DNA of 64,000 nt from an uncultured candidate division Zixibacteria bacterium (GCA_963713865.1 OY970208.1:1251422-1315421); one strand, 5' to 3'; shown: positions 58,531-64,000, numbered from the stretch's first letter. A program made the numbers and translations. The notes: generated by a model from the sequence alone, not told the origin.

Positions 58531-60083
58531 TTTACGGAGAGTTTGATCCTGGCTCAGAACGAACGCTGGCGGCGTGCCTCATACATGCAAGTCGTGCGAG
58601 AAATCCCTGTAGCAATACGGGGACGTAAAGCGGCGAACGGGTGAGTAACACGTGGGTAATCTGCCTTAAAGTCCGGGATAAGCCCTCGAAAGGGGGTCTA
58701 ATACCGGATAACATCCTGGAGAGACATCTTTCCGGGATCAAAGGTCCGCAAGGATCGCTTTTAGATGAGCCCGCGCTCCATTAGCTTGTTGGTGAGATAA
58801 CAGCTTACCAAGGCTATGATGGATAGCCGGCCTGAGAGGGTGTCCGGCCACACTGGGACTGAGATACGGCCCAGACTCCTACGGGAGGCAGCAGTAGGGA
58901 ATCTTGCGCAATGGCCAAAAGGCTGACGCAGCAACGCCGCGTGGAGGATGAAGTTTTTCGGAATGTAAACTCCTGTCAGTGGGGAAGAATATCCCGCCTT
59001 TGGCGGGACTGACGGTACCCACAGAGGAAGCTCCGGCTAACTCCGTGCCAGCAGCCGCGGTAATACGGGGGGAGCAAGCGTTGTTCGGAATCACTGGGCG
59101 TAAAGAGCGTGTAGGCGGGCAAATAAGTCAGACGTGAAATTTCCCTGCTTAACGGGGAAACTGCGTTTGAAACTGTTTGTCTTGAGTACGGGAGAGGAAA
59201 GTGGAATTCCTGGTGTAGCGGTGAAATGCGTAGATATCAGGAGGAACACCGGTGGCGAAGGCGGCTTTCTGGTCCGATACTGACGCTGTGGCGCGAAGGC
59301 TAGGGTAGCAAACAGAATTAGATACTCTGGTAGTCCTAGCGGTAAACGTTGGGCACTAGGTGTTGTTTCTTTAAAGGAGCAGTGCCGAAGCTAATGCATT
59401 AAGTGCCCCGCCTGGGGAGTACGACCGCAAGGTTGAAACTCAAAGGAATTGACGGGGGCCCGCACAAGCGGTGGAGTATGTGGTTTAATTCGACGCAACG
59501 CGAAGAACCTTACCTGGGTTTGACATCCTGATGAAAGCCCAAGAGATTGGGTCCCCCCGCAAGGGGCATCAGGACAGGTGCTGCATGGCTGTCGTCAGCT
59601 CGTGCCGTGAGGTGTTGGGTTAAGTCCCGCAACGAGCGCAACCCTTGCCCTTAGTTGCCACTTCCCGAGCAATCGGGAGAGCACTCTAAGGGGACTGCCA
59701 GTGATAAGCTGGAGGAAGGTGAGGATGACGTCAAGTCCTCATGGCCCTTATGTCCAGGGCTACACACGTACTACAATGGCCGACACAGAAGGTTGCAAAA
59801 CCGCAAGGCAGAGCTAATCCAATAAAGTCGGCCTCAGTTCAGATTGAAGTCTGCAACTCGACTTCATGAAGTTGGAATCGCTAGTAATCGCGGATCAGCA
59901 GGTCGCGGTGAATACGTTCCCGGGCCTTGTACACACCGCCCGTCAAGCCATGGAAGTCAGGGGTACCAGAAGTCGCTGATCTAACCCGCAAGGGGAGTAA
60001 GCGCCGAAGGTAAAACTGATGACTGGGGCTAAGTCGTAACAAGGTAGCCGTAGCGGAAGCTGCGGCTGGATCACCTCCTTTCT
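58531..60083 (+). rRNA. rrs: 16S rRNA
   Basis: AGAGTTTGATCCTGGCTCAG at 58538, GTGCCAGCAGCCGCGGTAA, 3' GATCACCTCCTTTCT; ends approximate. Confidence 0.98.
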
Positions 60084-60249
60084 AAGGAGTAAAAACAGGT
60101 GCGTAAAAGATCGAACGCATTGTTCTTTTAGCTTATGCACGCTATCTTAATATTTTTTTATATATGGTGGCCTTTTTGACTTATCCGAGAGGCGGATCCT
60201 GAGGATAGGTTTACAGCAGAAGCTCAAGAAGGCTGTGAACCCTCGCTGT

Positions 60250-60326
60250 GGGCCTATAGCTCAGTTGGTTAGAGCGCACGCCTGATAAGCGTGAGGTCAG
60301 TGGTCCGATTCCACTTAGGCCCACCA
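60250..60326 (+). tRNA. tRNA-Ile(GAT)
   Basis: GGGCCTA...CACGC-CTGATAA-GCGTG...TAGGCCCACCA. Confidence 0.95.
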
Positions 60327-60429
60327 GAATAAAAAAATGTAAATGGTTCATAGTGGATAGTTAATGGTACAAAAAAATAAAAAACTATGAACTAATAACC
60401 ATTAACTATGAACTAATTGAGGTTGTTCT

Positions 60430-61208: not shown

Positions 61209-61493
61209 ATGCATTTCGTATATATAATCCAAAGTTTAATGGATGACAGATACTATACGGGATACACTATAGATTTAAAAAGGAGATTAGAGAGACATAA
61301 TTCAGGATACTCAAAGGCGACTAAGAAGAGAAGACCTTTTAAGTTAGTTTATTGTGAGAGTTATCAGAATAAAAGTATAGCAATAAAAAGAGAGTATTTC
61401 CTGAAAGGCAAAATCGGAGGATCAACTAAGAAAAGTTTAGTTGAGAATTTTCCGAAGGAGGAATTGGTAAGGTATTTGAAGCTGGTAATATAA
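61209..61493 (+). CDS. GIY-YIG nuclease family protein inside the rRNA spacer
   Basis: FVYII...YYTGYT.DLKRRLERHN...TK.RRPFKLVY.E...AIKRE..LK. Confidence 0.9.
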   Translation: MHFVYIIQSLMDDRYYTGYTIDLKRRLERHNSGYSKATKKRRPFKLVYCESYQNKSIAIKREYFLKGKIGGSTKKSLVENFPKEELVRYLKLVI

Positions 61494-61527
61494 TGGGAGA
61501 GCGCCGGTTCGATCTCGGTTATCTCCA
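61494..61527 (+). pseudogene. tRNA-Ala remnant (direct repeat lacking the anticodon arm)
   Basis: TGGGAGAGCGCC joined directly to GGTTCGATCTCGGTTATCTCCA, matching two parts of 61121-61193. Confidence 0.8.
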
Positions 61528-61642
61528 AAAAATAGTAGACAGTAGATAGTAGACAGAATATAGGAATTGTTTCATAGATATTTGTTCTTTGACAATTTAA
61601 TAGAGAATTAGGGTGAGCATCTTTTAGATGCTACAAATTTCG

Positions 61643-64000
61643 GATCAAGTTACTAAGAGTATATGGTGGATGCCTTGGCACCAGAAGGCGATGAAGGACG
61701 TGGTAAGCTGCGATAAGCTCCGGTGAGCTGCAAACAAGCTATGACCCGGAGGTTTCCGAATGGGGAAACCCATCCCGGTTTATACTGGGATATCTCCTGG
61801 TGAATTCATAGCCAGGCAGAGGCGAACGAGGGGAACTGAAACATCTCAGTACCCTCAGGAAAAGAAAGTAAAAACGATTTCCCAAGTAGCGGCGAGCGAA
61901 CGGGAAATAGCCCAAACCGGTTTGTACGTTAAAGCCAGCGTGCGTTGTGCTACCGGGTTAGTGGGGTCTTAACGTGTTCTGAACGCTGACAGAGCAAAGA
62001 GTTACAAATCCATATTTTAGCCGAATAGCCTGGAAAGGCTGGCCACAGAAGGTGAAAGCCCGGTAGGCGATAAGGTATGGACTCTTAGTTAGGATTCCCA
62101 AGTATTGCGGGACACGTGAAATCCTGTATGAATCTGCCCAGACCACTGGGTAAGGCTAAATACTATCTGGTGACCGATAGTGAACTAGTACCGTGAGGGA
62201 AAGGTGAAAAGTACTCCTGGCGGAGAGTGAAATAGAACCTGAAACCATATGCTTACAAGCGGTGGGAGCCCAGTAGTTCCCTTCGGGGAACTACATGGGT
62301 GACTGCGTGCCTATTGAATAATGATCCGGCGAGTTACTTGTAGGTTGCAAGGTTAAGTCATACACTGACGTAGCCGTAGCGAAAGCGAGTCTGAAACGGG
62401 CGACAGAGTAACCTGCAGTAGACCCGAAGCCAGGTGATCTAGGCATGGCCAGGATGAAATCCAGGTAACACTGGATGGAGGTCCGAACCCACTAACGTTG
62501 AAAAGTTAGGGGATGAGCTGTGCCTAGGGAGTGAAAGGCTAATCAAACCTGGAGATAGCTGGTTCTCCCCGAAATAGTTTTTGGACTAGCCTCGCAAGAA
62601 GAGTAACGGAGGTAGAGCACTGAATGGGCAAGGGGCCCTACAAGGTTACCAACCCCAATCAAACTCCGAATGCCGTTACTTGTTTTGCGGGAGTCAGGCA
62701 GTGGGGGATAAGCTTCATTGCCGAGAGGGAAACAACCCAGACCACCAGCTAAGGTCCCTAAGTACAAGCTAAGTGAGAAAGGATGTGGAATTACTTAGAC
62801 AACTAGGATGTTGGCTTAGAAGCAGCCATCATTTAAAGAGTGCGTAAATGCTCACTAGTCAAGTGGTTCTGCGCCGATAATTCACGGGACTAAGCTTGTC
62901 ACCGAAGCTGTGGACTAGTCCCGCCTTTGGCGGGATTATTGGTAGGGGAGCATTCTGTAGTAGGTTGAAGTTCTGACGTGAGTCAGGATCGACGAGGCAG
63001 AAGAGATTATGCCGGAACGAGTAGCGATAAAGCAGGTGAGAAACCTGCTCACCGTAAACCTAAGGTTTCCTGAGGAAGGTTAATCCGCTCAGGGTTAGTC
63101 GGACCCTAAGCCGAGGCCGAAAGGCGTAGGCGATGGAAAAGCCGTTAAAATTCGGCTACCACCGGAGAGGCGTTTAAGACACTTAAGGGGTGACGCAGAA
63201 GTGAAAGGTCAGCCCCGCATTGGACTGCGGGGTCTAAGCCTGTAGAGGTTCCTGGCAGGCAAATCCGTCAGGATATAACCTTGAAGGGTGATGGGGAGGC
63301 CGCAAGGCCGTAAACTGACCCTAAGCAGGCTGCCAAGAAAACCCTCTAAGTGAGTTTTTCTGGTGTCCGTACCGTAAACCGACACAGGTAGGTGAGGAGA
63401 ATATCCTAAGGTGCTCGAGCGAACCCTCGTTAAGGAACTAGGCAAAATGACCCCGTAACTTCGGAAGAAGGGGTGCCCTAGTAGGTAAGCTTTTTCTTCG
63501 GAAGAGGCTGAAAGTGGCCACAGAGAAGAGGCCCGGGTGACTGTTTACTAAAAACACATGTCTCTGCTAAGCCATAAGGCGATGTATAGGGACTGACACC
63601 TGCCCGGTGCTGGAAGGTTAAAGGGAGGCGTTAGTTCCGCCGAAAGGCGGAGCGAAGCTCTGAACTGAAGCCCCAGTAAACGGCGGCCGTAACTATAACG
63701 GTCCTAAGGTAGCGAAATTCCTTGTCGGGTAAATTCCGACCTGCACGAATGGTGTAACAATTTGGGCGCTGTCTCAACGAGGGACTCGGCGAAACTGTAG
63801 CAGCGGTGAAGATGCCGCTTACCCGCATCGGGACGGAAAGACCCCGTGAACCTTTACTATAACCTGATATTGGATTTTGGTCAGGCATCGTGTAGCATAG
63901 GTGGGAGACTTTGAAGCTGGCCGACGCTAGTTGGAGTGGAGCCATCAGTGAAATACCACTCTTGTCTTATCGGTATTCTAACCTGGACCCATGAAGCTGG
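61643..64000 (+). rRNA. rrl: 23S rRNA (3' end beyond window)
   Basis: GGTGGATGCCTTGGC 5' region, GAACTGAAACATCTCAGTA, GTAACTATAACGGTCCTAAGGTAGCGAAATTCCTTGTCGGGTAA. Confidence 0.98.

Follow-up and report, generated by a model that had tools for sequence, protein, structure and literature searches.

A short CCGCC/GGCGG hairpin at the tips of rRNA, riboswitch and repeat hairpins and beside small GIY-YIG genes in a candidate division Zixibacteria genome

Here we describe a mini-hairpin, CCGCC-N3-GGCGG (YCCGCC-N3-GGCGGR with the next base pair included), found in a stretch of 64,000 nucleotides (nt) from an uncultured candidate division Zixibacteria bacterium (GCA_963713865.1 OY970208.1:1251422-1315421), referred to as the window, and compare this hairpin, the unit, to the closest described systems. 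In Neisseria, the 94-aa GIY-YIG protein SsnA cleaves single-stranded DNA upstream of the NTS hairpin (CGTCATTCCCGCGMAVGCGGGAATCYRG), to which it binds; the upstream CGTC tag of this hairpin is crucial, and its loop is dispensable and extendable (Chenal et al. 2025, PMC11893778). Repetitive extragenic palindromes (REPs) include short palindromes with a GTAG or (C/T)GTC tag, of which the CGTC type has a terminal CGTC/TGTC, an 8-9 bp stem opening with two A-T pairs, a 4-5 nt loop and a 3-nt tail (Di Nocera et al. 2013, PMC3733652). As reported in the same paper, one REP family may mix short loops with "loops" that are long, GC-rich and self-complementary (in GTAG-3 and GTAG-14, whose termini are GRCG/CGYC and GCGG/CCGC), and some REPs are inserted within small palindromes or genes. 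GTAG-headed hairpins of many families also make up the REP/REPIN-RAYT (REP-associated tyrosine transposase) systems (Nunvar 2010, PMC2817692; Bertels and Rainey 2011, PMC3116915). Loop variants within REPs (Di Nocera 2013) and the motifs of Ssn nucleases (Chenal 2025) are already known, as far as the available parts of these papers go. In the portions of the literature available to us, no published description was found of one apex shared across families and placed in ribosomal RNA (rRNA) or riboswitch helices, nor of pseudo-tRNA (transfer RNA) cassettes with a GIY-YIG gene. Small dispersed repeats of 21-27 nt in Nostoc, reportedly described by Elhai and colleagues in 2008, are said to be nested in repeats, in heptamer arrays and in themselves, and to have been proposed as the smallest mobile elements; they differ from the unit in phylum and sequence and in having no nuclease link, and they are not known to occupy rRNA or riboswitch sites.

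The mini-hairpin is real, sequence-specific and promiscuous. The original prediction, made from the window, had supposed it to be over-represented, and the genome (G000; 2.72 Mb in one contig, 40.4% G+C) indeed holds 116 exact copies, where the expectation based on how often the two 5-mers occur is 0.73. Within the window, there are four exact copies of CCGCCNNNGGCGG (at 7328, 45599, 58994 and 62921) against 0.01 expected, a number reached in 0 of 100 shuffles. The mirror motif GGCGG-N3-CCGCC, used as a control, has 0 copies genome-wide, and the most frequent of the other GC-only 5-bp stems (32 such stems in all), CGCCC, has nine. CCGCC-N3-GGCGG is the commonest 5-bp/3-nt hairpin of the genome. 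The next pair outward is C..G in 54 of the 116 units, T..A in 50 and another combination in 12, and 33 loop types occur among them. Near copies with one mismatch number 157, of which 124 differ by a transition; together with the lineage-specific transitions in the REP-A copies described below, this is neutral decay. A thermodynamic optimum was rejected as the cause of the excess, since the 31 other GC-only stems are rare and control hairpins fold equally well: ViennaRNA gives the unit energies of -12.2 as RNA and -7.7 as DNA, and seven typed control hairpins of equal composition range from -11.2 to -13.0 and from -6.9 to -9.1, respectively. Because a folding advantage over these controls is absent, the excess is specific to the sequence and is not an effect of stability.

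Clustering of the 116 units by their flanks yields 57 to 63 clusters, depending on flank length and threshold, with 39 to 44 singletons, and a single REP family as the source was rejected by the 57 flank clusters. The largest cluster accounts for 13% of the copies, versus 33-100% for 15 other abundant hairpin cores of the genome, each of which lies mainly within one family. The hosts include, besides repeats, octamer arrays, plain terminators, the flavin mononucleotide (FMN) riboswitch and three rRNA helix tips. In the REPs of PMC3733652 each loop variant is confined to one family, whereas here one apex spans at least 57 contexts, including RNAs that are not repeats; REP sites in rRNA or riboswitches are not described in the available text of that paper, which names rRNA once, for 16S rRNA trees. 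Open reading frames (ORFs) of at least 120 aa contain 22 of the 116 units, nearly all at ORF ends, and in-frame 5-aa protein insertions, which the original prediction had proposed to look for, are at most rare, one such unit being a natural GG segment of MnmE. Another, within a REP-G-like hairpin, lies in a DUF6599 ORF (genome 1116972-1118018, locus L202; residues 146-151 of 349) and may be an in-frame REP insertion.

The unit alternates with plain loops at fixed sites, including sites in rRNA and a riboswitch. The identical 17-mer TCCCGCCTTTGGCGGGA in 16S and 23S, and TCCGCCGAAAGGCGGA further along 23S, are present as had been claimed; the 17-mer occurs exactly twice in the window. The operon runs 16S, two tRNAs and then 23S (Rfam gathering scan).

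58531-60081, window rRNA operon: small-subunit rRNA
61643-64000 (to the window end), window rRNA operon: large-subunit rRNA
58992-59008, plus strand: unit forming the tip of a variable hairpin of 16S (V3 region)
62919-62935, plus strand: the same 17-mer as the tip of a 23S variable hairpin
63636-63651, plus strand: TCCGCC-GAAA-GGCGGA, a variant with a 4-nt loop, in a third rRNA hairpin (23S)

We take the 16S site to be h17 (E. coli numbering), and the first 23S site is presumably H45. With its flanks, the 23S copy reads AGTC-CCGCC-TTT-GGCGG-GAT, the GTC-tagged form, and agrees with the cassette hairpin described below over the tag and the G.T pair too. In an alignment of 17 16S sequences, the tip is the unit in G000, G001 and G005, a drifted form of it in G008 and G003, CCCCGAU-loop-AUCGGGG in G007 and G010, and part of a longer helix in family f2, and its state differs within genus g3. 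In an alignment of 12 23S sequences, the 17-mer is common to G000, G001 and G008, whereas the hairpin is ordinary and equally long in five relatives and expanded by 53 nt in four. This structured expansion of about 53 nt, at the helix of window positions 62912-62940, belongs to family f2 (G019, G020, G009 and G012; loci L037-L040). The 23S helices 25 and 45 host intervening sequences, and the tip of helix 45 is a tolerant site; the f2 expansion is similar to such sequences, whereas the unit neither lengthens the helix nor shows a sign of excision. A survey of 285 genomes of the phylum, many of them assemblies without rRNA, found the unit at the 23S tip in four, three of family f1 and one of another family (G273, loop TAG), the last being an independent second origin in the phylum. 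At the third site, 4 of 12 relatives keep TCCGCC/GGCGGA with a GAAA or UUCG loop, and a fifth has a similar stem; the loop is UUCG in G019 and G020, G001 has one change, G011 is similar, and seven relatives have other sequences. The rRNA units are not insertions: the tips that they replace are equally long or longer. In G008 the 16S copy has drifted and the 23S copy is intact, so that concerted conversion between the two is absent. An rRNA unit is neither necessary nor automatic in motif-rich genomes.

Replacement of a loop by the unit is also seen in a dispersed repeat, REP-A (GTAGGGACAGAA-loop-TTCTGTCCCTAC). There, 44 copies carry a 5-nt loop, mostly CAYTG, and 21 carry TCCGCC-TNA-GGCGGA or decayed forms on the same outer stem; one further match to the search pattern is unrelated. 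Among the REP-A copies there are perfect palindromes with a single central base, and loops occur in both orientations, TCA and TGA. REP-A, D, G and H all have GTAG/CTAC heads with the unit as apex. Two further families, B (GTCATTCTGA...GAAGAATC; 93 copies, exact unit in 14) and C (GTCATTGCGA...GAAGCAATC; 34 copies, exact unit in four), start with (T/C)GTC-AT... and are built from an outer stem of 5 bp, an internal loop and a hairpin at the apex, which in the copies without the unit is another small hairpin. Families B and C were rejected as hammerheads or other known RNAs, as the Rfam gathering scan of the window gave rRNA and tRNA only. A GTC tag stands on at least one side of 28 of the 116 units, leaving 88 without it; the tagged subset reads (A/T/C)GTC-CCGCC-N3-GGCGG-GAY, the base before GTC being A, T or C in 33 of 34 cases, and the bare unit has no A-T start. 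The window sites in repeats and arrays are as follows.

7313-7356, minus strand: family C (TGTC/CGTC-tagged) hairpin repeat of the GTCATTGCGAG...GAAGCAATC type, with the exact unit (7328-7340) as apex
9742-9777, minus strand: family B hairpin of the GTCATTCTGA...GAAGAATC type, apex CCCGCC-TTTG-GGCGGG
21185-21227, minus strand: family C hairpin with near-unit apex TCCGCCTTTGGCGAGA; apex of the G001 ortholog TCCCCGAAGGGGG
30504-30518, no strand assigned: near-unit TCCACCTGAGGCGGA replacing the 5-nt loop of a REP-A copy
45598-45612, no strand assigned: exact unit TCCGCCTTAGGCGGA, in a flank family of five members
51814-51850, plus strand: family C hairpin with near-unit apex
53605-53619, no strand assigned: near-unit TCCTCCTCAGGCGGA inside a TTGAACNT octamer array

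The sites listed in the original prediction are exact at 7328 and 45599, and the rest are near variants (8333, 9751 with its 4-nt loop, 9796, 16587, 18736, 21198, 25636 and 51825). The nesting proposed at 30504 and 53605 holds, in both cases for near-units; the copy proposed within a heptamer array at 47839 has two stem mismatches, is too degenerate, and was excluded from the members. Beside it, heptamer-like CAGTAGA/CAGTAGG repeats occupy window positions 47769-47835 at the 5' end of a 684-aa ORF whose start codon is uncertain.

The loop-to-unit pattern of REP-A recurs in the FMN riboswitch, a functional locus that is unique. The riboswitch of this genome (Rfam RF00050, 95 bits) carries the unit, and in an alignment of 30 relatives its variable hairpin holds the exact unit in eight (G000, G002, G006, G008, G014, G024, G032 and G034), with eight different loops; related genomes and orthologs are non-independent observations in these counts, as in those of GIY-YIG loci below. 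The hairpin holds a near or decayed unit in G001, G005 and G021 and is short, with a 5-nt loop, in about 17 genomes. Both states occur within genus g9, ...CGCGCC|CGTAC|GGGCCG in G033 and ...CGCGCC|CCGCCAACGGCGG|GGCCG in G014, a comparison that is unrooted. The loops again come in both orientations, AAC in G014 and GTT in G032. A second helix of the riboswitch, confined to families f2 and f3, holds the unit in two genomes (G025 and G032) and a decayed form in two others (G016 and G026), and a third insertion, in G016, contains the unit. The original prediction that the motif stands in place of ordinary loops is thus borne out for REP-A, the riboswitch, the 16S and 23S tips, and the pseudo-tRNA arms described next.

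The unit is a conserved neighbour of Ssn-like nuclease genes. The genome has eight small GIY-YIG genes with a clear match to the Pfam GIY-YIG family, and no specific NCBIfam family was found for their products. One of them lies in the spacer of the window rRNA operon.

61121-61193, plus strand: tRNA-Ala(UGC), anticodon stem CCGCC/GGCGG, 7-nt loop
61209-61493, plus strand: 94-aa single-domain GIY-YIG (Ssn-like) minigene in the 16S-23S spacer, right after tRNA-Ala; ortholog in G001
61494-61527, plus strand: partial tRNA-Ala copy without the anticodon arm, immediately following the minigene

An association with a nuclease gene had been suggested, and for four of the eight GIY-YIG genes an exact unit does lie no more than 60 nt from the end of the ORF (overlapping the ORF in three tandem copies). 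Each of these three tandem copies is followed by a tRNA-Met copy whose D-loop is TCCGCCTGCGGCGGA and whose variable loop is TTCGCCAAGGCGAA. Another gene (genome 2706377-2706652, encoding 92 aa) follows an intact tRNA-Ser and precedes a tRNA-Ser copy in which GCAGCTGCCTGC of the anticodon arm is replaced by TCCCGCCGCTGGCGGGA, and a further gene has family B hairpins on its flanks. The tRNA-Ser cassette has 15 orthologs (12 genomes, families f1 and f2), every one of them with GAAGTC-CCGCC-N-GGCGG-GATAAGCAG or a near form with a free loop, 11 of them as exact N3 units and four as variants (a 2-nt loop or other). Across the GIY-YIG loci of relatives, an exact unit lies within 200 nt downstream in 13 of 30 and within 160 nt upstream in 7 of 30, compared to about 0.9% of random 200-nt stretches of the genome (computed from the 116 copies).

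As a separate observation, the order tRNA gene, GIY-YIG minigene of about 90 aa and disrupted copy of that tRNA, in which a loop or arm is either deleted or exchanged for a mini-hairpin, recurs here with tRNA-Ala, tRNA-Met (three in tandem), tRNA-Ser and a Gly-like tRNA (window 61121-61527; genome 330.7-331.7 kb, 2706.3-2706.8 kb and 2133.3-2133.7 kb; further loci L316-L345, L349, L350, L353 and L357). This arrangement looks like a tiny tRNA-targeting nuclease cassette. At a further locus (L047, G001:C3, near position 2164), tRNA T-arm sequence accompanies CCGCC-TAC-GGCGG at the place of the long variable arm. The tRNA-Ala anticodon stem is CCGCC/GGCGG, as had been stated, and tRNA-Glu has the identical stem. 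Because tRNA-Glu of E. coli has this stem as well, the match was given no weight. A tRNA origin of the unit was rejected: no tRNA of the genome has the unit, tRNA-Ala and tRNA-Glu sharing the stem only. The spacer GIY-YIG gene was likewise rejected as the cause of the 23S copy, since G008 has that copy and shows no such gene in the final ~360 nt of its spacer.

Compared to the Ssn/NTS system in the available text of PMC11893778, both systems have single-domain GIY-YIG proteins of about 90 aa beside hairpin repeats, an upstream (H)GTC tag occurs in both, here on the tagged subset of units, the NTS upper stem CCCGC/GCGGG resembles the unit's CCCGCC/GGCGGG, and the dispensable, extendable loop of Ssn sites fits the freely varying apex here. 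The unit differs from Ssn motifs in being much shorter (13-19 nt), in standing on one side only of the GIY-YIG genes, and in that the genes here lie between a tRNA gene and its disrupted copy and not between two repeats; the nuclease role here is putative.

The motif also occurs in all 40 relatives compared, so that the finding which would have told against the prediction, no excess together with the same rRNA helices in relatives lacking intergenic copies, was not made. Within the order, genomes hold 9 to 487 copies versus 0 to 17 of the mirror control; several genomes of other orders have similar counts of motif and control. Five of the relatives (G035, G036, G037, G039 and G040) have a count close to that of the mirror control, and in the three of these from which rRNA was recovered (G036, G037 and G039) it has no unit. 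At least 123 stretches in the genomes of other species contain the exact 17-mer. The 80 of these that were viewed in context come largely from Ignavibacteria, Bacteroidota, groups of the candidate phyla radiation (CPR), Omnitrophota, Zixibacteria and Desulfobacterota, and their contexts include family-C-like repeats, terminators and three CPR 23S hairpins. One of the three, in a Berkelbacteria genome, is a 23S helix tip equivalent to that at window 62919, and the other two are different 23S hairpins in other CPR genomes. Four distant-phylum genomes, picked for holding the 17-mer, have 143, 10, 41 and 23 copies versus 4, 0, 0 and 8 of the control, the Berkelbacteria genome being the one with 10 versus 0. 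A universal favourite hairpin was rejected for phage DNA, as viral contigs have 11 copies of the 17-mer versus 16 of the mirror.

Closer at hand, G001 belongs to the same genus as G000 (about 85-90% identity). Between the two, whole REPs have been gained or lost at four loci (L067, L071, L074 and L075), and some orthologous family B and C elements differ in the apex only (window 21198 and L066). At L072, where the flanks are 84-97% identical (BLAST), G001 has the unit and G000 another hairpin. The orthologous long copies of REP-A differ by lineage-specific transitions.

The reading that we prefer, although we would put it slightly below an even chance, is that the unit is a modular, GTC-tagged nuclease-site hairpin of the REP class which has spread at the DNA level into single-stranded hairpin loops, is amplified by its host repeats, and decays. 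In this lineage, an order, it is a constant component of the small cassettes at tRNA genes that carry a GIY-YIG (Ssn-like) single-strand nuclease gene; the hairpin would be the nuclease site, and loops would be the target. Copies may have been repeatedly written, at the DNA level, into the single-stranded tip loops of other hairpins, namely REPs, GTCATT-type repeats, terminators, and variable helices of riboswitch and rRNA, where they would be tolerated because tips are free to vary. Host repeats carrying the unit would then amplify it, and copies would decay by transitions. The candidate mover is a hairpin-specific single-strand nuclease, either the GIY-YIG or the Y1 RAYT-like proteins. The presence of a 13-19 base hairpin at the tips of unrelated hairpins suggests that selfish hairpin DNA helps write variable parts of functional RNAs. 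A broader proposition, which we consider rather doubtful, is that the GTC-tagged mini-hairpin, as a candidate site of Ssn-like nucleases, is the smallest mobile or convertible DNA and overwrites tip loops genome-wide, so that part of the variable regions of RNAs (e.g., 16S V3) would be written by selfish hairpins and not by drift in Zixibacteria, CPR and other uncultured phyla.

A number of results weigh against the preferred reading. No movement of the unit was seen directly, and at well-anchored orthologous REP-A sites of G000 and G001 about 12 of 13 are in the same state, with one different (L251); from this retention and the lineage-specific transitions it follows that events are rare on the G000/G001 timescale and that copies are not homogenised. 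No target-site duplications or loop remnants were found at unit sites, the loop being replaced and not entered. Across contexts the stem varies far less than the loop, a pattern not expected from a single master copy. Relatives with 100-487 motif copies have no rRNA units. G008 has the 23S unit but, within the final ~360 nt of its spacer, no visible GIY-YIG gene, and two CPR genomes (Berkelbacteria and WWE3) have the same tRNA/GIY-YIG order with other small hairpins and not the unit. The published SRM pattern, HGTCWYN(0-2)YYVSBRHN(0-5)WNVSBRGN(0-2)RNCYNB, has four matches in the genome versus 8, 1 and 5 in three first-order Markov controls, and none of the 116 units falls within a match. Replication-strand bias is absent, both for the G.T form (6 vs 11) and for all GTC-tagged copies (16 vs 18); families B, C and REP-A likewise show none. 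The unit was also rejected as the cognate hairpin of a RAYT, as it flanks 0 of 8 Y1-transposase-like genes. Of the earlier idea that an ultra-short element or a conversion process targets hairpin loops, loop replacement stands, and autonomy and ongoing conversion are not supported by the retained REP-A states, the decay by transitions and the motif-rich relatives without rRNA copies.

One alternative is convergent selection at the RNA level, in which a host factor or a property of RNA favours a CCGCC/GGCGG helix with any small loop, and unrelated transcript hairpins (terminators, riboswitch and rRNA tips, transcribed repeats) converge on it. The constant stem and free loop, both among the 116 copies and in the 15 orthologous cassettes, fit this explanation, as do the third 23S site, which keeps its stem and swaps GAAA for UUCG, both classic RNA tetraloops, and the restriction of the unit to tips in functional RNAs. 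Nevertheless, we judge it unlikely: equally stable hairpins go unused, the 8-10 nt insertion that makes an exact palindrome in the FMN riboswitch is unreachable by point steps, REP-A copies decay without compensation, the unit is also present in pseudo-tRNAs and octamer arrays, and no candidate host factor was found.

Templated mutation without an enzyme, by template switching or short-patch conversion between GC-tipped hairpins sharing the microhomology GCC...GGC, would instead copy the commonest apex with neither an element nor a nuclease. It fits replacement without target duplication and the palindromes with a single central base in REP-A, as well as loops in both orientations (REP-A; G014 vs G032), and recipients often already end in GCC/GGC or CCC/GGG (CGCGCC|loop|GGGCCG in the riboswitch, UCCC|...|GGGA in 16S). 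We nevertheless regard it as improbable, since it leaves unexplained the preference for one stem among the 32 GC-only stems, the conserved placement beside GIY-YIG genes, and the strong enrichment in the four distant-phylum genomes chosen for holding the 17-mer. Finally, it is very unlikely that the rRNA copies are ordinary variable-helix drift unrelated to the intergenic repeats, repeat biology then being confined to the intergenic copies: the tips are of normal length for their helices with compensatory change in relatives, the lack of concerted conversion in G008 and the motif-rich relatives without rRNA motifs agree with drift, but against it stand the same 17-mer in two different helices and the same stem in a third, the second origin in G273, the Berkelbacteria and two other CPR 23S hairpins, and the match of the 23S copy to the cassette hairpin over tag and G.T pair.

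If tips are indeed repeatedly overwritten by one repeat-derived hairpin, rRNA variable regions, which are used for taxonomy and probe design, would evolve not by drift alone, and identical tips in distant phyla could mislead alignments and chimera checks. AGTC-CCGCC-N3-GGCGG-GAT is a concrete candidate site for an uncharacterised clade of Ssn-like proteins, a family of interest as single-stranded DNA tools. A further point of interest is the gene order tRNA, GIY-YIG minigene and disrupted tRNA copy, recurrent in Zixibacteria and two CPR genomes.

Other features of the genome were noted in passing. The two spacer tRNAs of the window rRNA operon are about 800 bases apart (60324-61120). As in the REP-RAYT systems in the available descriptions, each of the eight Y1-transposase-like genes has its own flanking hairpins; unlike the whole REP of those systems, the unit is an apex module. 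These Y1-transposase (RAYT/IS200-like) genes lie, for example, at 801428-801877, 1824898-1825404 and 1449485-1449955, and several have a private hairpin on both sides (CAGTTCGCTGAAGCGAACTG, GGAGGTCTTCAGACCTCC and GCATCAGCTTGCTGATGC). At least a dozen further abundant hairpin families are present in the genome, such as ACGCAT-N3/4-ATGCGT with 60 copies.

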